DNA of 64,000 nucleotides, taken from positions 91,852 through 155,851 of the forward strand of contig MGRG01000012.1 of NCBI GenBank assembly GCA_001798075.1. The letters are read 5' to 3'. A model generated the notes under the pieces. It saw only the letters and a program-made list of their open reading frames with translations. It ran no database searches and was not told the DNA's origin. The stretch is from Deltaproteobacteria bacterium RIFCSPHIGHO2_01_FULL_43_49 (GTDB lineage: Bacteria; UBA10199; SPLOWO2-01-44-7). A program made the translations under genes and the position numbers. Positions 2,004 to 58,015 of the stretch are shown one piece after another (position 1 is the stretch's first letter; each line of letters starts with the position of its first letter).

Positions 2004-2100
2004 AAAGCCTCTCTACAAGCGAGTCGTATAAAACATCTCGCGCTAAGTCAAATCATTTTGCCAAGCAACTTTTTTTGAATAGTGGCGATAGTATAGGTGT

Positions 2101-3382: not shown

Positions 3383-3547
3383 GGTTTCTTCTTAAGCAAA
3401 CCGTGTGCCAGTTTTAACGGTGTTAAAATGGCTTTGGTAGTGAGTAGGTGACCGATTTGAAGCAGCTACTGACGGGAAATTGGCAGGCAAGCCATGGTTG
3501 ACTTAAAGCTAGTGTCATGACAAAAAGCGCAAATCTTGGAGGTCTCT

Positions 3548-4705: not shown

Positions 4706-6954
4706 TGTTATCGATCAAAAAAGCAGCGGTGATTGGTTCGGGAGTCATGGGGTCTGGAATTGCGGCCCATTTGGCCAACTGCGGGATTCCTTCTTATCTG
4801 TTGGATGTTGTTCCTCCCGATTTAGAAAAAATTCGGAAAGCTAGCCCAGCTCATTTATATGATGCCGATGACATTCGTCTCATCACTGTGGGACTATTGG
4901 ACCAAAATTTAGAAAAACTCAGAGAGTGCGACTGGATCATTGAGGCCGTCACCGAAAAGCTCGATGTCAAAAAAAATCTCTACAACAAAATCAAACCCTA
5001 CATTAGAGATTCTGCTTGGGTCTCTTCAAATACTTCTGGTCTTCCACTAAATGAATTAAAGTTTCGCGATAAATTCTGCATCACACATTTTTTCAATCCG
5101 CCACGCTATTTGAAGCTGATCGAAGTTGTTGGGGAAGCCAAAGAATTAGTGGAATTTATCGAAGAAAAATTGGGAAAAGGTGTTGTGAAGGCCAAAGATA
5201 CTCCTAACTTCATTGCCAATCGTATTGGTGTGTTTCATGTTTATGACTGCTTTCACATGACTTATGAAAAAAACTGGCCCCTTTCAAATGTGGAAAAAGT
5301 GATGGGACCTGCCACACTTCACCCCAAGAGTGCTGCTTTTAGAACATGTGATTTGGTGGGGTTGGATACGCTAAGCCTCGTTGCCAAGACTTGTTATGAT
5401 GGATGTAAAGAGGATGAGAACCGAAATCGCTTCAAAAACCCTGCCTTTTTGGACCAGATGATTGCCAAAGGATTGGTAGGTGCCAAAGTTGGCCAAGGTT
5501 TTTACAAAAAGGATAAAGAGACGAAGGAGATTTTGGCAATCAATTTACAAACACTAGAGTACGGCCCTCAACAAAAATTCAGAGCTGATTCTTTGGGCAA
5601 AGTTCGGGAAATGACAGAGCCTGCTGAAAAACTTCGCACCGTTGTCTTTGCTGATGATGAAGCAGGGCAGATCGCCTGGCCCTTGATGTCGAACATGCTG
5701 GTCTATGCTGCCAATCGCGTTCCAGAAATTTCAGATTCGATTGAAGATGTGGATAGAGCATTGCGCTGGGGATTTGGTTGGGAGCTCGGTCCTTTCGAAA
5801 TGTGGGATGCCTTGGGAGTTCCCCAGGTGGTAGAGCGTTTGCAAAAAGAGGGGCGTGCGGTTCCAAAATTGGTTCAAGAAATTCTAAAAAAAGGTGGAAA
5901 GTTTTATCCAAAGCCCAATCTGACCTTTTTGAAATCTCGCAAGGCTAATGGCGGTGTGGTCGAGAGCAATGCCGGCGGCTCCATTGTCGATTTAGGCGAT
6001 GGCGTTTTCTGCGCTGAGTTTCAATCCAAGATGAATGCCATCGATGGGGATGTCATAGAAACGATCAATAAAGCCCTCGCTAGGGCTGAGAAAGAGGGAT
6101 TGGGAGTAGTTATTACAAACGAGGGTGAGAATTTTTCAGTGGGTGCCAATTTGATGCTCATTTTACTCACCGCCCAACAAAAAGATTGGAAGCAACTCGA
6201 CTACATCGTTCAGGAATTTCAAAAAACGATGCAGAAAATTAGGTTTAGTCCAAAACCAGTAGTGGCGGCCCCGTTTAATTTGGTTTTAGGCGGAGGTTGT
6301 GAGGTTTGTCTCTCCGCCGCTCATATTGAGGCCCATGCTGAAACCTACATGGGTTTAGTGGAAGTCGGTGTCGGCATTCTTCCTGCCGGTGGCGGTTGTA
6401 AAAATATGATTCTGCGTTGGGAAGAAAAATTAACAAAACCCAAAAGCCCTCAAAATATGATTTGGTTTTCTCCGCTCGATGGCGGTGTTTTTCCAAAAGT
6501 GGGCAAATCTTTTGAGATGATTGCAATGGGAAAAGTTGCGACCTCCGCCAAAGAGGGAAAGAAATTTGGGCTTTTGAGAAAAAGTGATGGCGTTACTTTG
6601 AATAGAGATAATTTAACTCAGGCAGCCAAGAAAAAAGTTTTGGAACTTGCCAAAAATTATCAGCCCCCAAAAATGCGTGAAGATATTCAGCTGCCGGGCC
6701 GGGGTGGAGAAGTTGCTCTTGTCAGCGGTGCCCATGCTTTCTATTTGCGTGGCGAAATTAGTGATCACGATATGCTGATTGCCAAAACGGTTGCCCATGT
6801 TTTGGCGGGTGGCGATATGCCAACAATCCACTATACCTCCGAGCAGCATATTTTGGATTTGGAACGGGAAGCCTTCCTCAAACTCTGCGGTGAAGAAAAG
6901 ACTCAAGCCCGCATGCAGCACATGCTGATGAACGGAAAACCGCTTCGTAACTAG
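4705..6954 (+). CDS. fused 3-hydroxyacyl-CoA dehydrogenase / enoyl-CoA hydratase
   Basis: N-terminal NAD Rossmann motif AAVIGSGVMGSGIAAHLA; C-terminal crotonase-like region (VVAAPFNLVLGGGCEVCLSAAH). Start ATG overlaps the thiolase stop (TAATG), so the two are an operon. Confidence 0.9.
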   Translation: MLSIKKAAVIGSGVMGSGIAAHLANCGIPSYLLDVVPPDLEKIRKASPAHLYDADDIRLITVGLLDQNLEKLRECDWIIEAVTEKLDVKKNLYNKIKPYIRDSAWVSSNTSGLPLNELKFRDKFCITHFFNPPRYLKLIEVVGEAKELVEFIEEKLGKGVVKAKDTPNFIANRIGVFHVYDCFHMTYEKNWPLSNVEKVMGPATLHPKSAAFRTCDLVGLDTLSLVAKTCYDGCKEDENRNRFKNPAFLDQMIAKGLVGAKVGQGFYKKDKETKEILAINLQTLEYGPQQKFRADSLGKVREMTEPAEKLRTVVFADDEAGQIAWPLMSNMLVYAANRVPEISDSIEDVDRALRWGFGWELGPFEMWDALGVPQVVERLQKEGRAVPKLVQEILKKGGKFYPKPNLTFLKSRKANGGVVESNAGGSIVDLGDGVFCAEFQSKMNAIDGDVIETINKALARAEKEGLGVVITNEGENFSVGANLMLILLTAQQKDWKQLDYIVQEFQKTMQKIRFSPKPVVAAPFNLVLGGGCEVCLSAAHIEAHAETYMGLVEVGVGILPAGGGCKNMILRWEEKLTKPKSPQNMIWFSPLDGGVFPKVGKSFEMIAMGKVATSAKEGKKFGLLRKSDGVTLNRDNLTQAAKKKVLELAKNYQPPKMREDIQLPGRGGEVALVSGAHAFYLRGEISDHDMLIAKTVAHVLAGGDMPTIHYTSEQHILDLEREAFLKLCGEEKTQARMQHMLMNGKPLRN

Positions 6955-31456: not shown

Positions 31457-31849
31457 GTGAAAATTCTATTCGTTTGCGAATACAACGCTTGTCGGAGTCA
31501 GATAGCTGAGGGGCTGGCCCGTGCGCTCCTTCCGGAAAATTTTTCAATAACGAGTGCCGGTATTTATCCTGGTGAGTTGAATTGGGTCACCATTGAAGTA
31601 ATGAAGGAGATCGGGATCGACATCTCAACCCAGAGGTCCAAGTTGCTTGCAGAAGTATTGGACAGGCGTTTTGATCAAGTAATTGTCCTGGCAGAAGCGG
31701 CATGGAGGGCGGTCGAGATGTTAAAAACCGACCACAAATTGCTTTGGCCCTTTCCTGATCCAGCATGCGATCCCGGCGATGCCGAAGCGGTGAAAGGACG
31801 AATCCGCAGAGTTCGAGATCAGTTGAGAGAGAGGATTTTAACCCTATGA
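31457..31849 (+). CDS. low-molecular-weight phosphotyrosine phosphatase / arsenate reductase family protein
   Basis: CX5R P-loop VCEYNACRSQ near the N-terminus. Start taken at GTG 31457 (track start is TTG 31421). Stop overlaps the otsA start (ATGA). Confidence 0.7.
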   Translation: MKILFVCEYNACRSQIAEGLARALLPENFSITSAGIYPGELNWVTIEVMKEIGIDISTQRSKLLAEVLDRRFDQVIVLAEAAWRAVEMLKTDHKLLWPFPDPACDPGDAEAVKGRIRRVRDQLRERILTL

Positions 31850-34104
31850 AGTTTTCCCGTTTTGGGATTTTAGTCATCGGTTCTTTGCTGGTTGTTGTTG
31901 TCGGCATCTCTTTTATCCATTTTCAGCGAGAGCAGACCGCTCTTCGCGATGACCTCAACCGACGCGCCCGTGTGATCTCAAAAAGCCTCGCGCCGCCTGC
32001 AATCCGTATCTTGAAGAATCCCCCCGCCATTGACGAAGAAGACGTTGCGGAGCGGTTGGAGGGGCAGGGTCGTACTATCGGACTCATGATTTGCAACCTT
32101 GAGGGAAAACCGATCGCATTGTCGTCGACACTGACTGACACAGTAACCTGCAACGATGAGGTCATGGCCACGTTGGAAAGCGGAAAGGAATCTATTTTAC
32201 TGGATGAAATAGGGGGTCAGTCGCTCCACCGCCTGATTTTGCCATTGAAAGATCGCACCGGTTCTCTTCTTGGCACCCTTACCATCGTTCACGATTCCTC
32301 ATACATTACCAAACGGGTCACGTCCGCAGTCACCTGGATGACCCTCAGCCTCGCCATTTTGGCGATTGTCATTGCTCTTGGAACCTATCTTGCCTCTCGT
32401 CGCTCATTCCAAAGGTCGGTCACTCAGCTCCTCGACTGGATGAAATCATCGAAGAGTGCGGAAGACCTCCCTCCACCCACCGAATCTCTTTTGAGACCTG
32501 TCTCCAGGGAGGTTGAAAAGCTGACCGCGCGGCTACGGGCGGCCAAAGAGACAGCCAAAGAGGTTTCGGAGGCAAATCGTGTGAGTAATCTTTGGACTGG
32601 GGCACGACTCAAGGGTCACGCTACGTTTTCTATCGGAAATAAATCGCTGATCGTTGTTTCCAACCGGGAACCATACATGCATGTCAAGAAGGAGGGAAAA
32701 CAGCGAGTCATCATCCCTGCCAGCGGTCTTGTAACAGCCCTCGATCCCGTCCTTCGGGCGACGAGCGGTATCTGGATTGCCCACGGGTCAGGAGAAGAGG
32801 ACCGCGACTTTGTGAATAGTGAGGACAAGATTCTGGTACCGCCAGAGTCTCCGCTTTATACGCTTCGCCGGATCTGGCTCACGCGAGAAGAAGAAGAGCG
32901 ATACTATTATGGCTTCTCCAACGAGGCAGTCTGGCCCCTCTGCCATCTCACCCATCACCGTCCACATTTTGAGGAGAAGGACTGGCAGTCTTACATAAAG
33001 GTGAATGAGAAATTTGCCGACGCTGTCCTCCAAGAATGTGGCAAAGACCAACCGTTTGTCCTAGTTCAGGATTATCATTTTACCCTGCTCCCAAAGTTGA
33101 TTCGCGAGAGGCGGCCGGATGCCGTGGTTGGCCTTTTCTGGCACATTCCCTGGCCTACGCCTGAATCGTTTCAAATCTGTCCCTGGAAACGAGAGATATT
33201 GGAAGGGATGCTGGGAGCAAATTTTGTAGGTTTTCATCTGCAATCGTACTGCAACAACTTCCTGGACACTGTAAACAGCCTTCTCCCTGTGCGAATTGAT
33301 TGGGATCGACCTGGCATCCTTCACAATGAAGGCTTAACAACGGTCAAACCGTTTCCCATTGGCGTCCAGTTGTGGTCGGAGCGAGGAGTCGCTTCAGATG
33401 AGAGATTTCGGGAAAAAGCAAATATGTGGCGGAAGGAGTTGGAGTTAAATGCCAAGCGTCTGATCGTGAGCGTTGATCGGCTCGATTACACCAAGGGGAT
33501 TCCAGAGAGGATTGGTGCCATTGATCGGTTTTTGGAAAAGTATCCAGCCCATCGGGGAAAAGTTGTCTTTGTTCAACTTGCGGCCCCCAGCCGGGTTCAC
33601 ATCCCCCGTTACAGAGAATTTGTGACAGAGGTGGAGGGGCTTGTGGAACAAATCAATTGGAGACATGGGACAGAAGACTGGAAACCGATTCTTTTTCTCA
33701 AATCGCATCATGACCCCGAAACAGTTTATACCTTTCTGCGGATGGCCGATGTTTGCATCATTAGCTCTCTTTCAGACGGCATGAATCTTGTCGCCAAGGA
33801 ATTTGTCGCGGCGCGAGAAAAGGGAGATGGAGTGTTGATCCTTTCGGAATTTACCGGGGCCGCTCGGGAGTTTCAAGACGCGTTGCAGATCAATCCCTAT
33901 GCCCGTGCCGACTTTGCCGAGGTCATCAGGGTGGCCATTGAGATGCCGATGGAAGAGCAAAAAAAACGGATGAGCCGGATGAAAGCACAGGTCATAGAGC
34001 ACAATGTCTACGGATGGGCCGCGAATCTTATCACGGAAATGACTCAAACTGTAGAAGTCGGCATTTCATCCCGTCAAGATTTTCAAACAAGCAAGTACCT
34101 TTAA
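31846..34104 (+). CDS. otsA: trehalose-6-phosphate synthase (GT20) with ~265-aa N-terminal membrane-anchored extension
   Basis: GT20 catalytic region from about 32640 (LIVVSNREPY, FWHIPWPTPE, ANFVGFHLQSY); two predicted TM helices upstream (FGILVIGSLLVVVVGISFIHF; VTWMTLSLAILAIVIALGTYLA). Confidence 0.85.
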   Translation: MKFSRFGILVIGSLLVVVVGISFIHFQREQTALRDDLNRRARVISKSLAPPAIRILKNPPAIDEEDVAERLEGQGRTIGLMICNLEGKPIALSSTLTDTVTCNDEVMATLESGKESILLDEIGGQSLHRLILPLKDRTGSLLGTLTIVHDSSYITKRVTSAVTWMTLSLAILAIVIALGTYLASRRSFQRSVTQLLDWMKSSKSAEDLPPPTESLLRPVSREVEKLTARLRAAKETAKEVSEANRVSNLWTGARLKGHATFSIGNKSLIVVSNREPYMHVKKEGKQRVIIPASGLVTALDPVLRATSGIWIAHGSGEEDRDFVNSEDKILVPPESPLYTLRRIWLTREEEERYYYGFSNEAVWPLCHLTHHRPHFEEKDWQSYIKVNEKFADAVLQECGKDQPFVLVQDYHFTLLPKLIRERRPDAVVGLFWHIPWPTPESFQICPWKREILEGMLGANFVGFHLQSYCNNFLDTVNSLLPVRIDWDRPGILHNEGLTTVKPFPIGVQLWSERGVASDERFREKANMWRKELELNAKRLIVSVDRLDYTKGIPERIGAIDRFLEKYPAHRGKVVFVQLAAPSRVHIPRYREFVTEVEGLVEQINWRHGTEDWKPILFLKSHHDPETVYTFLRMADVCIISSLSDGMNLVAKEFVAAREKGDGVLILSEFTGAAREFQDALQINPYARADFAEVIRVAIEMPMEEQKKRMSRMKAQVIEHNVYGWAANLITEMTQTVEVGISSRQDFQTSKYL

Positions 34105-46445: not shown

Positions 46446-46465
46446 CAATTAGGAGAGGTTTTTTA

Positions 46466-48046
46466 ATGGCTGAGAAGTGTCAATTAATTAGTAAATTATC
46501 AGTGTCACCCTCCATACTGCTCGGTAGTTTTCTTTATGATATCAGCAAGTTAGGTGGAAATCCTGGGGAGCTAGACACCTGTGACCTAAAGGTTTTCCAA
46601 AAGGAATTGGGTATTTCTTTGCCCCAAAAAGCATTTCTCGACAAATTTGGAAAAGGGGATTCGTTTAAACTCATTGAAGCCTCTGAATTTCTTTATAATC
46701 AGTATTTATATGCCCCCAACAATAAATATTATGCGTTTTACCCCAAATATTTCAGCAATCAGACCCATGCGGATCTCGCAGAAGTGGCTCTTCGTGACCT
46801 AAAAACGACCCTGGAACCTATCGTCGAAGTAGGAGTCCTCAAAAAAATTCCTATCTACGAGCGCATCTTGAAAGAACCGGCCCTGGCAGAATGGCTTTCT
46901 GTTGATGAAAAAGAAAAAATTGGAGCAGACATTGCAAAAATTCGTGAACTTTTTGAAGAAAAGAACTGGAAAGACCTCTACCCCCGCATGGACACTTTTG
47001 AAGTATCTCTCCCTGATTTGTACGAGACGATTAGCCAACGAGCTCAGGATAACGTTAAATTTTGGGAAAGGGCTGTTGTTGCAACGGAAGTTGTTCACAA
47101 TGTGTTATTTATCGGGGCCGGTGTTGCAGTGGGAATCGTTGCTGGCCCTGTGGCAGCTGTTGGTGCGACACTGGCATTCGGTTTATCTTCCCTCGCCTCC
47201 GAAGAAACTGCCAAAGCTATTTCACAAGATGACTATACATGGCAAAATGCTTTGAAATCTTTTGGCTATCACGCACCGTTTGATATTATCAAAAGTGCCG
47301 CTTTCCTATTTCCGCCACTCAAGGCTGCAACCATCTTTGTGGGAGCCACTTTTGTGGAAGTTGCGGCAGACCCATTTGGAGAACCGAAACCTGTTGTTGA
47401 CCGTTTGATTGATGGAGGTTTTTCAGCTCTGGTTGCAGCGGCCACTTTTTTCGTTGGGAAAAAAGCCGGCGAAAAACTGGGGCCTTATTTTGCAAAATAT
47501 TTTAGAAGAGCCATCCAGCCAGTTCCGGAGTCACCTCAACTTGTCAGACCAACAGTTGTTGAAACTCGAACGGCTACTTCTCCCTCGCCACCTGTTGAAC
47601 CGCCTCCTCCAAAAATGGAAGTGGAGCCTGCACCGCCACCCCCCACCCCCAAACCAAAAAGGGTCGAAGCCAGACCCAAAAATGGTGGCCCTAATGGAGC
47701 ATCGCATTCAGAGAAGGTCTTGCACACCATCAAGAAAACACGATTTGCAGAAGATTGTTTTGAAAAGCTCACACCGTTGGTTAAAGGAAAAATGGAGGAG
47801 TTTGTTGCAACACTCGTTAATAAATTAAATTTCGGAGTTCCTATTGCAAAAATTGCTAATGTCATGCGGAACAAGGATTTCGCCGGTGTTTGGGAAGGAC
47901 GTTTCATGTCTGCTAGCAATGCGAGAGTCTATTTTAAAATCACCGATGATCCCAATGGTTCCAAAATAGTTGAGATTCTCGGTTATTCTTTAGGAGAAGC
48001 CGATCGCATTGCTATTTTACAGCATTTTGCTGGTGGGAGGCATTAA
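46466..48046 (+). CDS. operon gene 1: membrane-type protein with Gly/Ala-rich hydrophobic segments, Pro-rich linker and RelE/ParE-like C-terminal domain
   Basis: ATG 46466 with AGGAGAGG RBS; hydrophobic segments (VLFIGAGVAVGIVAGPVAAVGATLAFGL; FSALVAAATFFVG); linker SPSPPVEPPPPKMEVEPAPPPPTPKPK; C-terminus AGVWEGRFMSASNARVYFKITDDPNGSKIVEILGYS resembles the RelE/ParE toxin pattern. Confidence 0.6.
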   Translation: MAEKCQLISKLSVSPSILLGSFLYDISKLGGNPGELDTCDLKVFQKELGISLPQKAFLDKFGKGDSFKLIEASEFLYNQYLYAPNNKYYAFYPKYFSNQTHADLAEVALRDLKTTLEPIVEVGVLKKIPIYERILKEPALAEWLSVDEKEKIGADIAKIRELFEEKNWKDLYPRMDTFEVSLPDLYETISQRAQDNVKFWERAVVATEVVHNVLFIGAGVAVGIVAGPVAAVGATLAFGLSSLASEETAKAISQDDYTWQNALKSFGYHAPFDIIKSAAFLFPPLKAATIFVGATFVEVAADPFGEPKPVVDRLIDGGFSALVAAATFFVGKKAGEKLGPYFAKYFRRAIQPVPESPQLVRPTVVETRTATSPSPPVEPPPPKMEVEPAPPPPTPKPKRVEARPKNGGPNGASHSEKVLHTIKKTRFAEDCFEKLTPLVKGKMEEFVATLVNKLNFGVPIAKIANVMRNKDFAGVWEGRFMSASNARVYFKITDDPNGSKIVEILGYSLGEADRIAILQHFAGGRH

Positions 48047-50418
48047 TGACCACTATTAATTTTGGCTTTATTGAAGCAGCCATCACTGCAGCCCAGGCAG
48101 CCCAAGCGGCTTCTAATAGGGCTGAATTAGATGCCGCATTGGAAAAATTGGGGAGGGCGATCCATCCCCTGGATACCTTTGCTGATGGCAATCTATCCCC
48201 CTTGGTGGAAAGGCTGACGAGTGGTAGAAGAGCTGTCACTGAAGCAGAACTGAATCAAGTTATCAGGACTATCAACGATGCCGGGGATAAATACCGGGCA
48301 AGTTCAGGCACAAAGGAATCAAAAGCCAGCAGTGCGCACACAGGGCACGGTGTTCATGGAAGCCCCAATCCTTATCTTATTCAAGTAGGTCAGTCTAAAA
48401 CTTTTTCCCCGCGCCCTAACCAAGCCTACATCGCACGGAAAGCAGTGAGCCATTTTAGAGAAGAACACAGAGGTTTTTTTCGCCTCGATACAGGTGAGGG
48501 TAAAACACCAACATACGGATTCATCATTCAAGAACTTCGCAAAGAACTTCCCGATGAATACCAAGAGGCACTTGTTGTCATGGGTTGCCATCAAGCAGAA
48601 CCCGCTCGCAAATTGGCAGAGACGATGAAACATATGTTTCGTGATGAAAAAATCATGTTTTTAGAGGGAGGTATTGAAGCAGAAGATTTTAAAAGAGTTA
48701 CTTTTGTGGTGGGGACCTATCAACAACTAGCACAAAAATCGAGTATTGACGTTTTGAAAGAATGGGCTGGTCAAAAAAGAATTCTTTTTGTCTTGGATGA
48801 AGCGGACATGGTTGTTTTCAAAGGTATTGCAGAAGATGAACATCGAATGGCTACTTGGATTCGTCTCTTGATCGACTTTGGAGTCTTTACACAACATGGG
48901 CATTATCTTGCCAGAACACGGCATCGACTGTTGGGGGCCTCTGCAACCCTTGATCGCCCTGATGAAATTTCTCTCTCAACTGTTTGGGGTCCTGGAAATG
49001 TTTTCTATCATACACCGATGGCAGAGGGGGTTCGGCGCGGCACTCTTGTGCCCGTGGTTGGTCATGTCTTAGAAATGGATGTTCCAGAAAAAGAAAAACA
49101 TCTCTTCAGGGATTTTACGAAGATTGTGGATGGTAAGATTGTGGTTGATAAAACAAAAGTGATGTCTGCCTGCGGCAGTGATCATGCTGTTAAAACATCG
49201 GTTCGAGCTGTGATCGATCATATGAAGATGAAGATTGGTGCTGGAACGACAAAGGGTGAAGCAGTGCGGCGTGGGATCGGTTATGCCATGGACACCACTG
49301 CCTTGGAAAAACACATGCGCTGGCAGCAAGAATTATTTGGGTTGGTAGAGGTTATTTTCCAAATTTATCAAGGCTTGGCTGCATCAAAACCAATGCATGT
49401 TGATACAATCCTCGCTCATCTTGGTGGTCTGGAGAAACTAGATGCGTTTGGTCAAACTTTAAAACGGTTTCTCTATGCTAGAGAATGGAAAACGGTGGAA
49501 TCCCTTTACAGAAAGGCGGTCAGTTCTTTAAAAAATGGGAGAAAAGAAGGTATTTCGGAATTGTTCACTACTCTCTATTCTATTTTGAATGTTGATGTTC
49601 GCAGAATCAAAGGAAGACCTTTGGTGGCCACGGCTGTCTGGCAAAGTATGGACATGGATCGTGAAGGCAAAAAAATTCCTCGTGAGGCTCGTCGCACTCA
49701 ATATCTCAACAAATTTGGTGATCGGGAACTAACGATGAAGGGCTTCAATGCTGGGGTGATCGACATGCTCTGGAGCATTGGGATGTTGGACAGAGGTTTC
49801 GACGAACCGATGGCAAGCTTAATTGTTGATAATGCCCCTAGTTCATCGAGAAGAGAAGTGGTGCAAAGGGCAGGCCGTATCATGCGACCACCCGACCCCA
49901 AAAATCCTAAAGATCATAGTCAAAAACCAGAATCTATTTATATTACACTGACACCCAATTTGGAAGCCCACCATCTCGATGTGGCCAGAAAAGATTTAGC
50001 CCGAGTTTTTGGTACCGAAGTAGATCCTGAGCTCAATATCATTAAGATTCGCCCTACCAAAGAAGGGGATTTTGAGTGGCGTACTCCCGATCCTGTTCAA
50101 CTTGATTTGGGAGGTGATAAAAAAGTCCATTTAGTGTTGGTTGGGGCTAGAACCGTGGAGGCATTGGTTCATTTTTTAAAAGGACGTTATGGGAAAGATT
50201 ATGATCCCGAAATTTTGGCCTTCGATGCCGGTGTTGGGGTTGAAGAAGTTGATGATTTATTGCGGGCCATTCGTTTTCCCAAGGAATCCAGATTACGTGC
50301 CTTTTTAAAAAATTGGCGTGCCGATGATGCAACAATCCACCAAATCATGGCAATCTATCACTCCGATCTTGCCGACATGAAAACGGTCTATGGTAACGCC
50401 TGGAGGATTGTGCAATGA
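48046..50418 (+). CDS. operon gene 2: SF2 helicase / ResIII-type ATPase
   Basis: Motif I LDTGEGKT (about 48490), motif II LDEADM (about 48796), motif III SAT (about 48934), motif VI QRAGRIMRP (about 49861). Start overlaps the gene 1 stop by 1 nt. Confidence 0.75.
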   Translation: MTTINFGFIEAAITAAQAAQAASNRAELDAALEKLGRAIHPLDTFADGNLSPLVERLTSGRRAVTEAELNQVIRTINDAGDKYRASSGTKESKASSAHTGHGVHGSPNPYLIQVGQSKTFSPRPNQAYIARKAVSHFREEHRGFFRLDTGEGKTPTYGFIIQELRKELPDEYQEALVVMGCHQAEPARKLAETMKHMFRDEKIMFLEGGIEAEDFKRVTFVVGTYQQLAQKSSIDVLKEWAGQKRILFVLDEADMVVFKGIAEDEHRMATWIRLLIDFGVFTQHGHYLARTRHRLLGASATLDRPDEISLSTVWGPGNVFYHTPMAEGVRRGTLVPVVGHVLEMDVPEKEKHLFRDFTKIVDGKIVVDKTKVMSACGSDHAVKTSVRAVIDHMKMKIGAGTTKGEAVRRGIGYAMDTTALEKHMRWQQELFGLVEVIFQIYQGLAASKPMHVDTILAHLGGLEKLDAFGQTLKRFLYAREWKTVESLYRKAVSSLKNGRKEGISELFTTLYSILNVDVRRIKGRPLVATAVWQSMDMDREGKKIPREARRTQYLNKFGDRELTMKGFNAGVIDMLWSIGMLDRGFDEPMASLIVDNAPSSSRREVVQRAGRIMRPPDPKNPKDHSQKPESIYITLTPNLEAHHLDVARKDLARVFGTEVDPELNIIKIRPTKEGDFEWRTPDPVQLDLGGDKKVHLVLVGARTVEALVHFLKGRYGKDYDPEILAFDAGVGVEEVDDLLRAIRFPKESRLRAFLKNWRADDATIHQIMAIYHSDLADMKTVYGNAWRIVQ

Positions 50419-51725
50419 GTGTAAGTGTTGTCACTCCTGCAGGATATGTTACCGGCCTACTTGGTAATCTGGAGACCCTAAGTGTTGCCGGTCAAGAATC
50501 AGACATTGCAGAGGTCTTAAACGATTTATTTCCTCAAGTAGATCGTCTTGGTAATGCTGAACTTGGACAGCGTTTAAAAAAAGTAGCAACCGCGTTGCAA
50601 AATGGTGATTATAAAAGAACTCAATGGTTACAATCTTCATTATATCGTGAACTCACTGATCTTCAAGCAGCACTCCAAAGTGGTCAAGCTATTGAAGAGG
50701 CATTGCAAGCAAGACAAGCTGCTCAAGCGTTAAAAAAAATAGAAGGACCAGGCGGCGGGCGATTTACCTCTTCCATTACTGCAAGACCAGTTCAAAGAGT
50801 TTCTGTTGGACCACCACCAGTCATTGAATGGGAGAAGTTTGGATCTAGAAGGTATCCTGCACCGCTCCCCCCAAGTGAAGAGGTGAATACAGCGGGCAGA
50901 CGATTGGCTTATGTTGTCAGTTACGTTGCCGGAATGGCAGGTCATGGGGAATTCACGGCTGATACAGAAGATTTTTATAGCATCAGTTCTGAGATGCGCA
51001 GACGTATCGAAAAAGCGTTATTCGTTCCCAAAGCATTGGGCCAGTTTCCAACACGGGATGCAAGATCGATTATTATCAAAGCCCATCAATTAGAGCCGCT
51101 TTATGGAAGATTAGTTCAAGAACTTCTGATCCAATCTATTTTTGAATCACAGGGTTGGTCGTTGGGCGTTCCACTCTCCGATGCCCCGTGGGATCTCTCT
51201 TTTTTGTATGCCTTGAGACGCTATGGTGCGATGCAGTTGTTGGCCTCCGAAGAGAAAGCAAAAGAAGTGTCGGAAGACAAAGCGCTCATTCGCGTTGTGC
51301 AAGGCAAAGTCAGTTTGGAAGCGGTGAACTGGCATCCAGGCAAAACCCGTCGCGAAGTTTTTGAGCCTTGGTTACAAGGGATAGCCAGCAGAAATGGTAA
51401 CAATGAAAAACTTTTAGAGAGACAACGCAAATATATTGGCGATGGAATTTTGCGTGCAACAAATTGGCAGCCTCCTCGCAATGGCGCTGGTTGGGAGCCG
51501 CAACTCCAATGGATGGTCAGGCGCTGGATTGCCCATTTTCATTTTGGTGCTTTGCCGGCCCGGGGACTTCCATTTAAAACCGATGTGATCATTCGTTTTG
51601 CAATGGCGAAACACCCAACAAAACTAGATTTAACTTTTGCGAGAGCTTTGTTGGCCATGATGCGTGATTATTATTCAAAGGCAGAATTACAAGCCATGGG
51701 GGATTTTATACCGAGGGATAAATGA
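50415..51725 (+). CDS. operon gene 3: hypothetical protein (436 aa)
   Basis: 4-nt overlap (ATGA) with the helicase stop; no recognisable motif. Confidence 0.6.
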   Translation: MSVSVVTPAGYVTGLLGNLETLSVAGQESDIAEVLNDLFPQVDRLGNAELGQRLKKVATALQNGDYKRTQWLQSSLYRELTDLQAALQSGQAIEEALQARQAAQALKKIEGPGGGRFTSSITARPVQRVSVGPPPVIEWEKFGSRRYPAPLPPSEEVNTAGRRLAYVVSYVAGMAGHGEFTADTEDFYSISSEMRRRIEKALFVPKALGQFPTRDARSIIIKAHQLEPLYGRLVQELLIQSIFESQGWSLGVPLSDAPWDLSFLYALRRYGAMQLLASEEKAKEVSEDKALIRVVQGKVSLEAVNWHPGKTRREVFEPWLQGIASRNGNNEKLLERQRKYIGDGILRATNWQPPRNGAGWEPQLQWMVRRWIAHFHFGALPARGLPFKTDVIIRFAMAKHPTKLDLTFARALLAMMRDYYSKAELQAMGDFIPRDK

Positions 51726-54700
51726 GTATTGTTATCTCAAGGGGTTTAGCAGCACTTCAGTCTCAGATGGCAGAAGGTCTTGCCCGACTAACAGCTGACA
51801 ATGCCGCACTTTTTCAACCAGATTCTTCGTCTTCTTATGAAAACCCTGCTTTGTTAGCTGCGCAACGTTACACAAAAGAAGAACCAAGGAAAATTTCGCC
51901 CGGCATTTTCCTTCACGACATGCACGGGGCCTTGAAAAAAGTTGCCGGTTCTCGTTTCGTTGCTAAAACTCCAGAGAATGAAGACAAAGCATTTTTAAGG
52001 GCTATCGTGGGTGGTCTTTCCCTCTTTTTGGGGAAAATGGACGCGCAAAGTGAAACAGAGATTGCAGGAATGGTAGATCAAGTAATCTCGCAGATTGCAG
52101 ACCCTGCCATTCAAAAGCTTATTTTGGGTGCCGGCATTGCATTGCCAACTTCTTCCACAACGTCTGTAGCTGTTTCAGCTCCTTTAACGGTCTTGCCACC
52201 TGTTGTAGCCGCACCACAACCTCCTGCTCCAACTGTTGCTGCTCCTATCACGACAACTCTTACCCCTTTTGACTATCATCCAAACAGTGAAGAGAGGTTG
52301 GATGCTGAGTTTGAATATCGTCTCGCGAATGTTCACCAGCGCATTCAAGATGCAAATATTTCCTGGCCCTATGATTTTGTCAGATGGTGTCGCTCCCTTT
52401 ATCTTTTGGCAGGTGAGTTGCCAAATGGAGATGCAGCAAGGGTACGTGGAAATATCACCCGTGGTTTAAGAAGAATCAACGAGTTAGCCTCCATCAGTGT
52501 CGAAGATATTCGTCGCCTGTTAGGTCCTTCTGCGATGGCAGTGGGTCGTTACCCCGAAGGAATTTCGCAAGATTGGCCACGAGATATATCCAATGATTTT
52601 GGTTCTGCCATTATTGCTGTCCACGATGTCGGTGAAACTGTCATTGCCAACAAAGCAGCCCTCCTCTGGAAGGCAAGCACTGGCTTAGAAAATCAAGATG
52701 AGATTAGAGGTGATTTGGTTTCGATCCTGCGTCGTTTCGAAATAGCTTTGTTATCGGGAAGAGAAACAGATCATGAGGAAATAGAAAAAGCGCTTGATGA
52801 AATTGCGTTGAAAATTCCGGAAGCCAAACGCCCGGAAATGTTCTTAAAGAAAGAAACAGTACCACAGCCTTCACCCATCCCGTTAGAACCCATGTCGCAA
52901 GCAGAGTGGGTACAAAAAAGTTTGGATTTTTTGGTTTATGAAAAATCAAAATGGGGAAGTATGGAAGGAGAACTCTCCAATCAATTAGAGCATCTTTTTA
53001 AATTATTGAAAGTCGAAGAGGCTTTAGCACCACGTGCACCAGAGCTGTTGGGATTGGCATTTCAACTGATGTTATCTTATCGCCAGATGGTGGGGGTATC
53101 CGGAATAGAAGCTTTGGCATTGGGTAAAGATCCCAGCCTACCGATCAGTTTTGAAGACAGGGCTAAAGCCTTTGACATGATGAAGGCTGCCCACAACCAG
53201 CTCGATCTTCTTCAAGAGTGGGGTGATGCCTATAATAAAGATCCAAAAGCTTATCAACCGTTGTTCGGTGAAAATGGTCTTGCCGAAATAGTCTCTCGCT
53301 ACATCGTTCATGCTCGAGGAGGATCCCAAAACCCACTTGAAGAAGCGAGTGGAAATTTTGTTCAAGCACACCCTGAGTTGAAACTTTCAACTGCTATGGC
53401 CCGCAGGTTACTATCCTATTTTGTTGGGCTAACAGATGGAACTTTTAACGAGGCTTTCTTACAAGAAGTGTTAGGGGCCAAACCTAAGGCTCAAGAAGCG
53501 GCTGGACCAGAGCTTGATTTAGAAAATACCCCATTTTTGGATGTTGATCCAAATAAATACACTCCCTATGGGCGCGTTTTTGGAAAAGTTGTTCTGGATG
53601 GAGGAGTCATCCGAGTAGGCGGTGGCAAAAATAGACCTGGGATCTTTTTTGGGATTTATTTGACAACCTTAGAAAAGATTTACCGAAAATACCGTGAACA
53701 AGTTCGCACATCCGGTAGCAGTAGTTTCGAGTCGGCCTATACATTGGCCGTGAAGCAGGAAAAATATCAAGAAAGATATAGAAAAGACTATGAAAAATTG
53801 TTTGGGGATCTTCTTAGATTGCTGGGTGAAAATAAGGATATGGCCGATTTGGTGGAAACAGCAATTTTGTCTGGTAAGACTCAGTTAAAGGTACCTGAAA
53901 AGCAAGCAATACCTACAAGTGGCGGCCCTCCCATGGAACGACCTGTGGAAGAGGCGCCTACTGCAGCGCTAGCGCCAACACCAGCTCCAGTTTCAGTACC
54001 ACCATCGGTTGAAGTATCGAGACCAGCTGCAACAAGGGTTGATGAAGCCGTCTTTGCCGGTGCCGCACTCGTTTCACCCGATGCTCCTCCTGCCGAAGCT
54101 AACCCCTTTATCGAAGCAGCTGCAATAGTATCAGAGTTTGTTCCACCCCCAGCAGAGGTAGTTGTATCTTCAGGAGTTGCCGTAGTCGAAGTGCCACCAC
54201 CTGTTGAAACAGCGACAATTCCAGCGATCGAAGAAGAAATATTAATTGTAGATGAAGTAGAGGTAGAAACATTTCCAGCGATTCTAGCCCCCTATATTAC
54301 TAAATGGTCCCTGGGTGAAGTTGAGAAAAAAGTATTGCAAGATATGTGCGCGGTAACTTCACCAGAAGCTGTTTTGAAAGCTCTGGATAATATTGAACAA
54401 AACAGTTGGGAGAGTGAGGAGCGAAAAAGAAAGATTCTGACAGAATATGCAAGGGCTTTAGAACTTGGAAGAATAACAGAGAGAGGTAAAAAAAGAGTTG
54501 TAGAGCTTCTGGCCTCTAAGGAAAATTTTGGGAGGGTGAGACTTCTCCTATCTGTTGCCGCTGCAAAACCGACCAGTCTGGTTTTGGATCAGATTATTCC
54601 AGACCCCATTCAGTTGGGCAAAAAGGGGGGGCGATATCTAGATATTGACTTTAAATCTTACCCTCCTGTAGCTGTGGTTCGGCCTGCAATCACTCTTGCA

Positions 54701-57145
54701 GAAGGATTATACGAAGAAATAGCCGTCATGCCGAGTGGGCGTTCCGTATTGATTAGAGGACCTTTTAAAGGGGATGCCATTGATATCGGAATAGATCACG
54801 GGCAGCTCCAGAAAGGGATCGGTGGTCTTTTAGGTGAATTGGCAAGGGCTCAAGGGGCCATTGAAAGTGGCGCGCGAACCTCTCTCTTGCTCCTCGTTTT
54901 TAACGAAAATGGCATGACACCGCGTGCCCGAAAATACTTTTTTAGCCAGCACCCTCAAGGCACTTTGATTGAATGGTATGGAAACACTTTTAGTCGGTGG
55001 TCTTTAGAAAAATATGACGATGAAATTATGCTGCAGGAAACCCGTTTTGATAGAGAAGGGAATAAAATTTCTGAAAAACTTAATTCTATTGAAACATTCG
55101 AAGGAGAAGTAGAAGTTCATTTTGTTACAGCCAATGATCGCAATCCCCACACGGAACGCCTGATAGAAAAACCAACCACGCGAGCAATTGAAGATTTAAG
55201 GGCGATGGGAGAATCCAAAGAAGCGATTCGTTTGAAAGTTGTTCGGGATGCGGCCATTAACGCCGTCGGTTTTCTCAATCCCAATCACCCCGATGCAGAT
55301 AAAGTCATCGAAGTGGCTAAGAAGTTTGGTCAATCTCGTCTTAGTAAGAGACAAATTGTTGAATTGAAAGAGGAGCTGGATGCAGTTGTCATTGAAATAG
55401 AACATCGCTTTGACTCCACAATACCTCCTAAAGCTGTCGAATTGGCAGCCCTTGTGGGTGTAGAAAAATTAACTCAGTTGCTGACAATAAAAGGAATCTC
55501 TTCTGAAAATGTCGATGAATTGATCCATCACCTCTTGGTTTTAAAAACCAAGTTCAATGGAGAAGTCATTGTCAAAATAGTCGATCAATTGTTGGAAGTG
55601 AGTACAAAAAATCTCGCCCACTTTACAACACTTCTCAACCGCCTTGCTCAACTAGAAAGACTAGTAAGACAACGGGGTTTAAACATCACCGATATCACTT
55701 TAAAACCAGAAACCCTTTATGGTGGATGGGCCCTGACTTTGGATGGAAAGGTCATCTTGATCGGTTCTACTAAGGGGGAACCTTTTCATGTCCCATTCCC
55801 ATTGGGCGGGACAATGAAACAGGCTGAAGGGATTGCCGGAGCTTTAGCTCCCAATTTCGAAAGGGTAGAAGATGCGATTTTAGAAGGGAATGTGAGTGGC
55901 TTGCTTTTAATGTTGGTTGGAGAAGATGGAATTACCGAGCAAGGTAGAGACTCACTTTGGACAACCTTTGGATCCGATGCAGAAGTCTGGGTTCTCAAAA
56001 TAACCAATGATCAACAGGCCGATCATTATATCTTCAAAAAGAATAAAGAGGGCCCTTTGGCCGAATCGCTGGGAGAAGAAATTTATGAGGTGATCTCCTT
56101 TGCTCGTGAAGAAGAAGAAATTAAAATTGAAAAACTGGAACGAAAAGAAAGCCGTCAGGTCGTCAGTCCACTTTTGCTTGCAAAAAGAATTCTCGGTGTT
56201 GTGAAGCCCAAACCTTCTCCAGAGGGTGCACCAGCAAAGAAGCGTTGGGAACACATTGACGCGGATTTTGCAAAAATCTTTGCTGATCATGAGGTTACTG
56301 CACAACAAATTTGGGGACCTTTGAGCGAAATTGTGAATGATGAACGTGTTTTGAAAAAAGGAGATGCATTTATTGATTTGATGGAGTTTGCCGATCAGTT
56401 AAATGGAACCTTTGAAGCTCATTTAATGCCAATGAGTGCCTTGGCAACGGGAATTCAAATTGGAGAGCCCGTTTTTCCGGGAATAGACTTGCTCAAATGG
56501 AGAGATTTAATCGAAACTTCGACATTAGGAATCCAAGAAGCACTGTTTGATCTTAGTGACACAGAAGAAGAGGGAATCGCAAAAATCGTAAAGATTCCCC
56601 AACATCTGCATGAGTTTCATCTTTTGCTTCATCAGATTTTGATGGTTGAACTAAACGGTTATCGCAACCTCCTTAATCGGTTAGACAGTGTGAAGGCTTC
56701 AAGCGACATCCCGCCCGATTTGGCAAGACAAAAGGAATTGATTGAAACACTTCGAGGGCGTGCTGCAGATTTGGGAAAATACCTGGGGGCCGATTTCTTT
56801 AAAGAGCTCAATAAGATTCGGACCATCATGCAAAACAGAATCAATTACTTTAATGAAGTGTTGAAACCCAAGATTTTTGAATTTCAAACGAGGGATGATT
56901 TGGAGCTTCCTTCTTCGAATCCAATAACATCCGACCTCTATGCTTTTGTGGATAAATATGGTTTTAAACGGGGAAGGGAGGCAGAGCATGGAGTTCTCTT
57001 TGTAAATCCAGCTACAGGAATAACCGTAAATCTGCCCTACGACGATAAAGGTCTTGATCCACGCACGATGAAAAACTCCAGATCGGATGCTATAAAAGCT
57101 GTCGAAGAATCTTTGCGTAAAGAAGGCCGCATGCCCCCTGCTTAG
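51722..57145 (+). CDS. operon gene 4: giant hypothetical protein (1,807 aa) with Pro/Ala/Val-rich linkers and an internally duplicated ~95-aa module
   Basis: 4-nt overlap with gene 3; low-complexity linker at about 53910-54250; paired modules at about 54730-54990 and 55740-56000 share GxxxLLxLVxExGxT; no catalytic motif recognised. Confidence 0.65.
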   Translation: MSIVISRGLAALQSQMAEGLARLTADNAALFQPDSSSSYENPALLAAQRYTKEEPRKISPGIFLHDMHGALKKVAGSRFVAKTPENEDKAFLRAIVGGLSLFLGKMDAQSETEIAGMVDQVISQIADPAIQKLILGAGIALPTSSTTSVAVSAPLTVLPPVVAAPQPPAPTVAAPITTTLTPFDYHPNSEERLDAEFEYRLANVHQRIQDANISWPYDFVRWCRSLYLLAGELPNGDAARVRGNITRGLRRINELASISVEDIRRLLGPSAMAVGRYPEGISQDWPRDISNDFGSAIIAVHDVGETVIANKAALLWKASTGLENQDEIRGDLVSILRRFEIALLSGRETDHEEIEKALDEIALKIPEAKRPEMFLKKETVPQPSPIPLEPMSQAEWVQKSLDFLVYEKSKWGSMEGELSNQLEHLFKLLKVEEALAPRAPELLGLAFQLMLSYRQMVGVSGIEALALGKDPSLPISFEDRAKAFDMMKAAHNQLDLLQEWGDAYNKDPKAYQPLFGENGLAEIVSRYIVHARGGSQNPLEEASGNFVQAHPELKLSTAMARRLLSYFVGLTDGTFNEAFLQEVLGAKPKAQEAAGPELDLENTPFLDVDPNKYTPYGRVFGKVVLDGGVIRVGGGKNRPGIFFGIYLTTLEKIYRKYREQVRTSGSSSFESAYTLAVKQEKYQERYRKDYEKLFGDLLRLLGENKDMADLVETAILSGKTQLKVPEKQAIPTSGGPPMERPVEEAPTAALAPTPAPVSVPPSVEVSRPAATRVDEAVFAGAALVSPDAPPAEANPFIEAAAIVSEFVPPPAEVVVSSGVAVVEVPPPVETATIPAIEEEILIVDEVEVETFPAILAPYITKWSLGEVEKKVLQDMCAVTSPEAVLKALDNIEQNSWESEERKRKILTEYARALELGRITERGKKRVVELLASKENFGRVRLLLSVAAAKPTSLVLDQIIPDPIQLGKKGGRYLDIDFKSYPPVAVVRPAITLAEGLYEEIAVMPSGRSVLIRGPFKGDAIDIGIDHGQLQKGIGGLLGELARAQGAIESGARTSLLLLVFNENGMTPRARKYFFSQHPQGTLIEWYGNTFSRWSLEKYDDEIMLQETRFDREGNKISEKLNSIETFEGEVEVHFVTANDRNPHTERLIEKPTTRAIEDLRAMGESKEAIRLKVVRDAAINAVGFLNPNHPDADKVIEVAKKFGQSRLSKRQIVELKEELDAVVIEIEHRFDSTIPPKAVELAALVGVEKLTQLLTIKGISSENVDELIHHLLVLKTKFNGEVIVKIVDQLLEVSTKNLAHFTTLLNRLAQLERLVRQRGLNITDITLKPETLYGGWALTLDGKVILIGSTKGEPFHVPFPLGGTMKQAEGIAGALAPNFERVEDAILEGNVSGLLLMLVGEDGITEQGRDSLWTTFGSDAEVWVLKITNDQQADHYIFKKNKEGPLAESLGEEIYEVISFAREEEEIKIEKLERKESRQVVSPLLLAKRILGVVKPKPSPEGAPAKKRWEHIDADFAKIFADHEVTAQQIWGPLSEIVNDERVLKKGDAFIDLMEFADQLNGTFEAHLMPMSALATGIQIGEPVFPGIDLLKWRDLIETSTLGIQEALFDLSDTEEEGIAKIVKIPQHLHEFHLLLHQILMVELNGYRNLLNRLDSVKASSDIPPDLARQKELIETLRGRAADLGKYLGADFFKELNKIRTIMQNRINYFNEVLKPKIFEFQTRDDLELPSSNPITSDLYAFVDKYGFKRGREAEHGVLFVNPATGITVNLPYDDKGLDPRTMKNSRSDAIKAVEESLRKEGRMPPA

Positions 57146-57573
57146 GCCTTTTCCCTTTTGGCGAGGTAGTCCAACACAGATTTGGCAAAGAGTTCGAAGT
57201 CGCTTAGATGTTGCTTAAGAACGCTATAAATTTCTTTGTCATCCGTTTCCCAATAAAGATGCACCAAGCGGTTTCTCATTTTTGCCATTTTTCGCAATTT
57301 TGTGAGAAAGCCCTCGGTGACCACTCCATTTTCCACGAGTACTTTAAAGCTGTCGGCATAGTCCTTTGGCGCTCTAAAGCCAAATCTGGAGATGAGATGG
57401 TTTGTCAAATCAAGACATGTCTCTAAAGCATATTGGAGATTGAGGCGAGCGCTGTCTTTTTTCATCGCATCTTTTAGGAAATCAGCCTCAGAAAATGCGC
57501 CGAGTTCTTTCAACTTTAAAACATATTGACGAAGCCGATCTACGAGCATTGTTACTTTTTTTATATCAACCAT
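57142..57573 (-). CDS. hepT: HepT-like (DUF86) toxin
   Basis: Rx4HxY motif (RNRLVHLY) near the C-terminus; overlaps the upstream MNT gene by 8 nt. Confidence 0.8.
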   Translation of the reverse strand: MVDIKKVTMLVDRLRQYVLKLKELGAFSEADFLKDAMKKDSARLNLQYALETCLDLTNHLISRFGFRAPKDYADSFKVLVENGVVTEGFLTKLRKMAKMRNRLVHLYWETDDKEIYSVLKQHLSDFELFAKSVLDYLAKREKA

Positions 57574-58015
57574 GCGTCAACCCTTGTTCGCGAATCGTTC
57601 GCAAACGTTCCGAGCAATAGTTATCGATAAAAAATTTGAAATCAAAATAATGTTTGCGTGTTCGCTCTTCATAATTTGCTCGTATAGTATCCGAAATTGC
57701 GTAGAGTAATTTGCCGTCTGTGATTACTTTTCCTTGAAAATCAAGAGGGGCATCATTGATAATTCGAACATCAAACTCAAACGTTGGAAAGGAACCTTCC
57801 AAAAGGTCTTCGATCTCAATTTCAAAATCCCATCGATTCTTTCCAAAGTGTTTTGTATTAATAACCAAAGCAATATCGACATCACTAAGGGGCGTGGAGT
57901 TGCCTGTTGCGTAGGAACCATGCAAATAAACAAGTTCCAAAAAGGAATTTTTTTTTGCTAATTCTCGGAAGGCCCTCCCCAAATTTTCTTTATCCTGAGG
58001 TTTCATGACACTCAT
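57566..58015 (-). CDS. mntA: MNT-type nucleotidyltransferase antitoxin
   Basis: Nucleotidyltransferase motif LHGSYATGNSTPLSDVDIALV immediately upstream of hepT. Confidence 0.8.
   Translation of the reverse strand: MSVMKPQDKENLGRAFRELAKKNSFLELVYLHGSYATGNSTPLSDVDIALVINTKHFGKNRWDFEIEIEDLLEGSFPTFEFDVRIINDAPLDFQGKVITDGKLLYAISDTIRANYEERTRKHYFDFKFFIDNYCSERLRTIREQGLTHG

Follow-up and report, generated by a model that had tools for sequence, protein, structure and literature searches.

A membrane-type protein ending in a predicted, highly diverged RelE/ParE fold, encoded at the head of a four-gene operon in a deltaproteobacterial genome

RESULTS

The gene 1 protein ends in a predicted RelE/ParE fold

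RelE/ParE-fold proteins are normally small toxins that are restrained by a dedicated antitoxin. Here we describe gene 1, an intact open reading frame (ORF) of 526 codons at positions 46466-48046 (+) of a 64,000-nucleotide stretch of contig MGRG01000012.1 from Deltaproteobacteria bacterium RIFCSPHIGHO2_01_FULL_43_49; this whole stretch is referred to as the window. The gene 1 protein is of membrane type, and its C-terminal domain is, according to structure prediction, a genuine but highly diverged RelE/ParE (BECR) fold. No antitoxin-like gene adjoins gene 1 in the window, either upstream or downstream. The explanation that we propose, and to which we give a little less than an even chance, is that the protein is an effector anchored in the inner membrane that carries its RelE-type fold on a tether in the cytoplasm. 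Gene 1 looks like neither a secreted polymorphic toxin nor a toxin-antitoxin gene of the classical type II.

An earlier reading of this DNA from its letters and translations (the original prediction) had assigned the last ~105 amino acids (aa) of the protein to RelE/ParE on the basis of a sequence pattern, and the string AGVWEGRFMSASNARVYFKITDDPNGSKIVEILGYS, which it quoted, is indeed found at aa 473-508. The fold was recovered by modeling, whereas the pattern lies below statistical detection. An AlphaFold2 model of aa 411-526 built on a seven-sequence alignment reached a predicted local distance difference test score (pLDDT) of 85.3 and a predicted template modeling score (pTM) of 0.78, with all five models at 82 to 85. 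Foldseek comparison with the PDB placed Mycobacterium tuberculosis RelE1 at the top (E = 4.8e-4, template modeling score 0.70 to 0.76), followed by Thermus thermophilus RelE, HigB2, YafQ, ParE, and Cami1, so that the structure-prediction check suggested for this region returned a RelE/ParE-type fold. Against BFVD, the only matches were unnamed small phage proteins. The modeled domain begins with a strand (aa 420-424) and two helices (426-433 and 437-455), continues through a short strand (466-468) and three further strands (476-479, 486-494, and 500-509), and closes with a helix (511-523). A single-sequence run of the full-length protein gave the same helix-helix-strand-strand-strand-helix order in the C-terminal region, and hhalign (E = 0.01; probability, 4%) matched the domain end to end, over 87 columns and in register, with the RelE proteins of Escherichia coli and T. 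thermophilus.

At the level of profile comparison, no relationship in sequence could be detected between the domain and any of the 13 Pfam BECR families. Searches of Pfam, NCBIfam, PADLOC, and PHROG with the full protein or its isolated C-terminal 128 aa returned nothing relevant, and searches of PDB sequences with the protein (phmmer) or with the family profiles A1 and A2 returned no RelE/ParE chain. Nor did the Pfam and NCBIfam scans detect a ribbon-helix-helix (RHH), helix-turn-helix (HTH), or Phd-type domain in the protein. In a word-indexed search of 5.8 billion proteins, the full gene 1 protein was unmatched, the limit of 8,000 candidates probably having been taken up by proline-rich words, and the sole match to the A2 profile was the window's own fragment.

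Gene 1 founds a small family with a common layout

An exhaustive HMMER search over 1.84 billion cluster representatives gave seven matches to gene 1, namely six proteins and one 84-aa fragment. The six homologues are 414 to 623 aa long and show 22 to 29% identity in alignment A1, with E values from 5e-39 to 1.5e-4. The existence of full-length homologues at these E values indicates that gene 1 is more than a chance reading frame, and its ATG start is backed by the N-terminal M-x3-C-x2-I that they keep. At NCBI, one family member carries the label "hypothetical protein" and comes from a "Deltaproteobacteria bacterium" metagenome-assembled genome. Scans of genome and metagenome contigs with gene 1 gave no match, and tblastn found no copy of gene 1 in phages and no copy of gene 3 in plasmids.

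The membrane-type segments and proline-rich linker of the original prediction are both present, as judged by hydropathy and a linker proline content of 26%, and the second string that it quoted, SPSPPVEPPPPKMEVEPAPPPPTPKPK, falls inside the linker. All six homologues share one layout, in which an N-terminal region is followed by a hydrophobic hairpin, a polar loop, Gly-rich segments, a linker, and the C-terminal domain. The hairpin (about aa 202-245 in gene 1) has a central Gly-Pro, reaches a 19-residue Kyte-Doolittle mean of up to 2.23, and alone among the segments stays strongly hydrophobic throughout the seven-member family; the corresponding means are 1.6 to 2.2 in all homologues. It is the probable membrane anchor (aa 204-245). 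The remaining hydrophobic segments of gene 1 are weaker (1.58 at about aa 275-301 and 1.37 at about aa 313-333). Conservation is highest (26% mean pairwise identity) across the hairpin, the polar loop (with the family motifs SD..GE, DYT, YHAPF, and E.AGDP), and the weaker segments. The N-terminal region is the least conserved (19%) and is predicted, at low confidence, to be helical (single-sequence AlphaFold2). The linker spans 69 to 103 aa with 12 to 28% Pro across the seven members and is poorly conserved in sequence. The C-terminal domain is marked by the family motifs W-E-G, K-x-R-V-Y-F-x-I, and I-L-G-Y-S-x-G.

Six of the seven members have a Lys/Arg-rich flank behind the last hydrophobic segment, and inspection by eye showed no signal peptide at the gene 1 N terminus. 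Based on this basic flank, the lack of a signal peptide, and an even number of helices (two or four), the C-terminal tail and the N-terminal region would both be cytoplasmic; the charge bias in particular suggests that the tail faces the cytoplasm.

Cys5 (46478-46480), within M-x3-C-x2-I, and Cys39 (46580-46582), within T-C-D (S-D-C-D in P0007), are shared by each of the five members in which the N-terminal region is preserved, and the homologue P0006 has a second copy of the C-D motif. The first hydrophobic helix contains a GxxxGxxxG glycine zipper (aa 219-227; 47120-47146) that is semi-conserved in the homologues. Glycine zippers have been linked to the packing of helices and the formation of channels in membranes, and by analogy the gene 1 anchor might itself oligomerize.

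The domain is not a variable cassette and is unlikely to be a delivered toxin

The original prediction had read this layout as that of a polymorphic toxin and had suggested a tethered or delivered effector. The tethered half of that suggestion agrees with a fold placed behind hydrophobic segments and a linker; the delivered half is not supported, in view of the lack of a secretion domain and of the basic flank. The comparison with polymorphic toxins fails, given a C-terminal domain of identical type in all six other members, accompanied by no trafficking domain or immunity gene. Because all six other representatives carry the same domain, the C terminus of gene 1 is not a variable cassette. 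Pfam and NCBIfam scans of the seven members found no secretion or trafficking domain (LXG, WXG, PAAR, Rhs, or TPS), no small immunity gene lies 3' of gene 1 in the readable loci (the window, L010, L006, L005, and L001), and no orphan cassette arrays were seen.

It is thus very improbable that the protein works as an effector of the polymorphic-toxin-like kind, in which the hydrophobic region would help to export the RelE-type domain or to deliver it into another cell. The order of its parts would suit such a role, since an N-terminal region, "pre-toxin-like" Gly-rich segments, a proline-rich spacer, and a small C-terminal toxin-fold domain follow one another, and the Glu-Pro/Lys-Pro stretch, which we take to resemble periplasm-spanning tethers such as that of TonB, also counts for delivery. 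These features are outweighed by the same C-terminal domain in every family member, by the missing signal peptide and LXG, WXG, PAAR, Rhs, or TPS domains, by a downstream gene that is never a small immunity gene, by the missing cassette arrays, and by the basic flank that suggests a cytoplasmic tail.

The only apparent cassette swap in gene 1 also proved not to bear on delivery. The metagenome contigs L003 and L004 (ENA ERZ5996431 and JGI 3300009031), which are 100% identical to each other, join a gyrA-like gene (1-2652 of L003, 1-2713 of L004) to the window sequence from 47489 onward, that is, to the final third of gene 1. The two contigs represent a single assembly, in which the parts meet out of frame and 38%-GC DNA is set onto 45%-GC DNA. 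We therefore rejected a toxin-cassette swap in favor of an assembly chimera. This chimera explains the 84-aa "protein" in the databases, which is identical to aa 443-526 of gene 1.

Gene 1 is coupled to a helicase, gene 3, and a giant protein

Upstream of gene 1 lie a divergently oriented flavoprotein gene and a 222-nucleotide (nt) AT-rich spacer without a credible ORF (just a 53-aa TTG ORF and a 23-aa ORF), and the claim that no antitoxin-like gene lies directly upstream therefore stands. At the other end, the TAA stop of gene 1 overlaps the ATG of the 790-aa helicase gene 2 (TAATG), and a GGGAGG site lies within the end of gene 1 ahead of the gene 2 start. Overlaps at every junction (48046, 50415-50418, and 51722-51725) lead us to treat genes 1 to 4 as one operon (Table 1). 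The GC content of gene 1 is that of the rest of the window.

Table 1. Coordinates of gene 1, its parts, and the downstream operon genes in the window
Feature	Position	Strand	Description and basis
Ribosome-binding site AGGAGAGG	46451..46458	+	7 nt 5' of the gene 1 ATG; read from the sequence
Gene 1	46466..48046	+	526 aa; ORF listing; founding member of a small unannotated family
N-terminal region, aa 1-203	46466..47074	+	Cys5, T-C-D motif (Cys39); alignment A1
Gly/Ala-rich hydrophobic helical hairpin, aa 204-245	47075..47200	+	Kyte-Doolittle maximum 2.23
Conserved polar loop and two weaker Gly-rich hydrophobic segments	47201..47464	+	Alignment A1, hydropathy by region
Proline-rich linker, aa 341-417	47486..47716	+	26% Pro; preceded by Lys/Arg-rich flank
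Predicted RelE/ParE-fold domain, aa 419-523	47720..48034	+	AlphaFold2 model, Foldseek
Gene 2	48046..50418	+	790-aa superfamily 2 (SF2) helicase, ResIII/DEAD N-lobe and Helicase_C (Pfam)
Gene 3	50415..51725	+	436 aa, no known fold match; constant helicase partner
Gene 4	51722..57145	+	1,807 aa, Pro/Ala-rich linkers
Gene 4 C-terminal module, 78 aa	56909..57142	+	hmmsearch with profile A8

Gene 2 matches the Pfam families ResIII (8.5e-10), DEAD (1.2e-6), and Helicase_C (4e-6), and shows weak similarity to PbeA, Dnd-restriction, and XPB proteins in the C-lobe only. In PADLOC-DB 2.0, genes 1, 3, and 4 were unmatched, and gene 2 matched PbeA models just in the generic helicase C-lobe. Gene 3 gave no informative Pfam or PDB match in profile searches, and an alignment scan of genome and metagenome contigs was empty. 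It has 12 homologues (36 to 54% identity; partner size, 410 to 445 aa), and in every readable locus the gene 3 homologue lies directly 3' of the gene 2 homologue.

Gene 4 likewise gave no Pfam or informative PDB match in protein and profile searches; its homologues, at L007, L009, L010, and L012, are 1,655 to 2,399 aa long. An internal repeat seen by eye was not significant by BLAST. The protein ends in a module of the form ...YGF...ATGIT..LP...SDAIKAVEESLRK.GRM.PA, which is found in the window, L010, and L007 and is absent from L009. The module thus occurs only where gene 1 is present (three loci versus one), which we regard as a lead. We also considered and rejected a HicA-like nature for the gene 4 C terminus: it had one weak Pfam match (L010, E = 0.07), a negative PDB profile search, and an hhalign E value of 0.25 against E. 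coli HicA.

Gene 1 is an accessory, fast-diverging companion of the gene 2-gene 3 pair

The order of genes 1-2-3-4, which in the window runs on the forward strand, recurs in L010 and in the contig that encodes P0003. A second contig from the same sample has a putative 638-aa gene followed by genes 2-3-4. In L007 the order is 2-3-4-1. The 2.4-Mb contig L009 carries genes 2-3, a partial gene 4 paralogue, and then gene 4, with no gene 1 within 10 kb. Genes 2-3 stand by themselves in L011 and L013, where they adjoin HEPN/NTase and AAA_14 genes (L011) and an AbiEii gene (L013). The core therefore consists of genes 2 and 3, usually with gene 4, and gene 1 is an accessory linked to it in three lineages. 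The gene 2-gene 3 pair forms a conserved, unannotated module, usually accompanied by a protein of 1,650 to 2,400 aa, and its surroundings hint at a defense-island context.

The flanks of the operon are shared between the window and L010 (aminotransferase, CoaD, RsmD, and a SHOCT protein), and the P0003 contig also has the Zn-phospholipase C and flavoprotein genes in synteny. Between the window and L010, identity is 66 to 80% for the aminotransferase, CoaD, and RsmD and 50% for the SHOCT protein. Within the operon it falls from 57% for gene 2 and 46% for gene 3 to 31 to 38% for gene 4 and 26% for gene 1. By these sequence comparisons, gene 1 appears as the fastest-diverging gene of a vertically inherited locus.

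Convergent to gene 4, and with its end overlapping the gene 4 stop, lies a toxin-antitoxin pair of HepT (143 aa) and an MNT nucleotidyltransferase (149 aa) at 57142-58015 (-). It looks inserted between the operon and the aminotransferase gene, because it is absent at that position in L010.

In the loci other than the window, the surroundings of gene 1 vary. The gene 3' of it is the helicase gene in the window and L010, LysS in L006, an ABC binding protein in L005, and a convergent gene in L001, and no small partner gene lies next to gene 1 in the other readable loci. Directly upstream of the L005 homologue (P0004), a gene at 1693-5286 (+) encodes a 1,197-aa protein that does not match the gene 4 profile and so was rejected as a gene 4 relative; its C-terminal HFHS...PSSAD looks JAB/JAMM metalloprotease-like by eye only. 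Elsewhere in the window, the only clearly GC-richer stretch is 32001-34000 (0.515 versus about 0.44), inside a 779-aa ORF (31765-34104), and Rfam found no RNA family anywhere.

A tethered effector weighed against its alternatives

The gene, its family, architecture, fold, and gene linkage are shown by the results above, and we infer the topology, target, regulation, and any toxicity of the protein as follows. The gene 1 protein would be held in the inner membrane by the Gly/Ala hairpin, possibly together with the two weak helices, with the N-terminal ~200 aa and the C-terminal tail both on the cytoplasmic side. The tail would be a 70- to 100-aa proline-rich tether bearing the RelE/ParE-fold domain at its end. 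By analogy with the usual targets of this fold, the domain may act within the producing cell near the membrane, on translating ribosomes and mRNA, which it would cleave or simply bind. Instead of a small antitoxin, either the protein itself, in cis, or large partner proteins would keep the domain in check. In the window lineage, gene 1, translationally coupled to genes 2-3-4, would probably be an accessory to that module, providing it with an output or an anchoring arm.

A number of observations count against this proposal. At the level of the fold, the whole-protein single-sequence AlphaFold2 model was unusable (pLDDT, 41.7), no Pfam hit at E <= 10 was obtained for the C-terminal domain or for any of the seven members, the seven-member profile A2 found no RelE/ParE chain among PDB sequences, and P0003 and P0006 end right after the last strand, without the final helix. 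At the level of the locus, the helicase-gene 3 core occurs without gene 1 in L009, L011, and L013, and gene 1 homologues in L001/L002, L005, L006, and L008 are unlinked to the helicase module and sit among housekeeping genes. A solitary gene 1 without a plausible inhibitor gene is hard to square with strong toxicity. The predicted topology was derived from hydropathy and charge bias, and the tail would lie outside if the number of helices were odd.

The candidate active site is a further point of the same kind. We matched residues to RelE and YoeB by sequence and secondary-structure alignment, without coordinate superposition, and took the catalytic set of E. coli RelE to be K52, K54, R61, R81, and Y87. 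R487, on strand 3, matches RelE R61 and YoeB R65, and this position is basic in six of the seven members. The equivalent of K54 is basic in only four of seven, and the positions of K52, R81, and Y87 are occupied in gene 1 by Glu477, Ser508, and a Leu. With three positions replaced and K54 poorly kept, the canonical RelE active site appears to be absent. Four conserved polar residues (E477, R487, Y507, and S508) are carried by neighboring strands of the sheet, where RelE and YoeB have their active sites, and a noncanonical site built on an alternative Glu/Arg/Tyr set, as in YoeB, is therefore possible by analogy.

Could the fold itself be an artifact of modeling on a shallow alignment, the domain being something else? 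We consider this highly improbable. The model was indeed informed by seven sequences only, the sequence and profile searches were negative, and the hhalign probability was low (4%). On the other side, all five models were confident (82 to 85), the single-sequence run independently gave the same secondary-structure order, and the hhalign register spans the whole domain.

One alternative is that the domain is a nontoxic adaptor, that is, a fold kept as a ribosome-, RNA-, or protein-binding module of a lineage-specific housekeeping membrane protein, without poison activity. We judge this unlikely, though well within serious consideration. A protein with no nuclease or poison activity would need no antitoxin, which agrees with the replacement of most RelE catalytic positions and with the lack of an antitoxin or immunity gene in any of the seven contexts. 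The adaptor would also account for a stable place in the chromosome, with identical housekeeping neighbors in the window, in L010, and in the P0003 contig, for a GC content like that of the surrounding genome, and for the lack of copies in plasmids (searched with gene 3) or phages (searched with gene 1). It fits less well with the divergence of gene 1 (26% identity versus 66 to 80% for its neighbors), which is more typical of conflict genes, with the conserved polar cluster on the sheet at the likely equivalent of the RelE/YoeB active-site location, and with partner helicase-gene 3 pairs that adjoin HEPN/NTase, HepT/MNT, or AbiEii genes in three loci.

The missing RNase residues also allow a ParE-type action, in which the domain would poison or regulate a topoisomerase, gyrase, or other DNA enzyme alongside the adjacent helicase. 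ParE toxins are likewise without RNase residues (PMC11980606), and the gene coupled to gene 1 encodes an XPB/ResIII-type helicase. Since membrane tethering suits a chromosomal target poorly and gene 1 is often unlinked to the helicase, such an action seems improbable to us.

Finally, the proposed tethered effector may be part of something larger. Genes 1 to 4 could constitute an undescribed four-component, membrane-anchored conflict system, e.g., for abortive infection, in which genes 2-3-4 would sense foreign nucleic acid and trigger the gene 1 domain, leading to a shutdown of translation at the membrane. The domain would then be released or activated, possibly via the gene 4 C-terminal module. 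At present, we regard this four-component arrangement as doubtful.

DISCUSSION

Closest precedents of the gene 1 protein

Gene 1 differs from the stand-alone type II toxins RelE, YoeB, YafQ, HigB, and ParE in that its toxin fold is one domain of a 526-aa membrane-type protein with no adjoining antitoxin. It further differs from stand-alone RelE-type toxins in that the domain has no Pfam or profile match and does not keep the equivalents of RelE K52, R81, and Y87. Its closest precedents are ToxM, PtuZ, and Cami1.

In ToxM, a cytoplasmic BECR domain at the N terminus is followed by a transmembrane (TM) region and a periplasmic domain, and ToxM is co-transcribed with a small upstream antitoxin, ToxR (RHH/HTH); ToxM/ToxR has been described as the first possible type II toxin-antitoxin with membrane association (Gerdes 2025, PMC11980606). 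Like ToxM (PMC11980606), gene 1 joins a RelE-type fold to a region that would span the membrane, and in both the BECR domain is predicted to lie in the cytoplasm. In gene 1, however, the parts come in the opposite order, the fold being C-terminal behind a proline-rich tether and without an antitoxin gene, and a large N-terminal region and a hydrophobic core of several segments stand in place of the one central TM region of ToxM.

PtuZ carries a C-terminal BECR domain and is encoded in a three-gene predicted defense operon, ptuXYZ; fused toxin-antitoxins have also been described (Gerdes 2025, PMC11980606). Like gene 1, PtuZ has its BECR fold at the C terminus of a multidomain protein, in an operon with NTPase (nucleoside triphosphatase) and nuclease-type partners rather than an antitoxin (PMC11980606). 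The partners differ: PtuZ is encoded with a PtuA-like ATPase together with a type IV restriction homologue, gene 1 with an SF2 helicase, gene 3, and the giant gene 4. The N-domain of PtuZ is PIN-like, and the protein is free of membrane segments. Cami1 (PDB 8phb) is another RelE fusion, a CARF-RelE protein that acts as a CRISPR ancillary, ribosome-dependent RNase; gene 1 has neither a CARF domain nor a CRISPR context and carries a membrane-type N-terminal part instead. Polymorphic toxins with BECR-fold C-terminal domains (CdiA-CT, Rhs, and LXG; Zhang et al. 2012, PMC3482391) share with gene 1 a small RNase-fold domain at the C-terminal end after a spacer, but gene 1 is without their trafficking domain, C-terminal variability, and immunity gene (PMC3482391).

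Implications

Membrane-associated and multidomain versions of RelE/ParE were first described in 2025 (ToxM and PtuZ). To these, the gene 1 family adds a C-terminal predicted fold on a membrane-type protein, with a long proline-rich tether and no antitoxin, that is invisible to sequence models. The helicase, gene 3, and giant-protein module is itself a candidate new system, and if the four-component arrangement were true, it would represent antitoxin-free control of a RelE-family effector.

If the domain is active, the family raises the question of how a translation-targeting effector is restrained and triggered without an antitoxin. If it is inactive, a toxin fold would have been turned into an adaptor that binds ribosomes or RNA. 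In both cases, the family shows that toxin folds missed by profile methods can be recovered by structure prediction from very shallow alignments.

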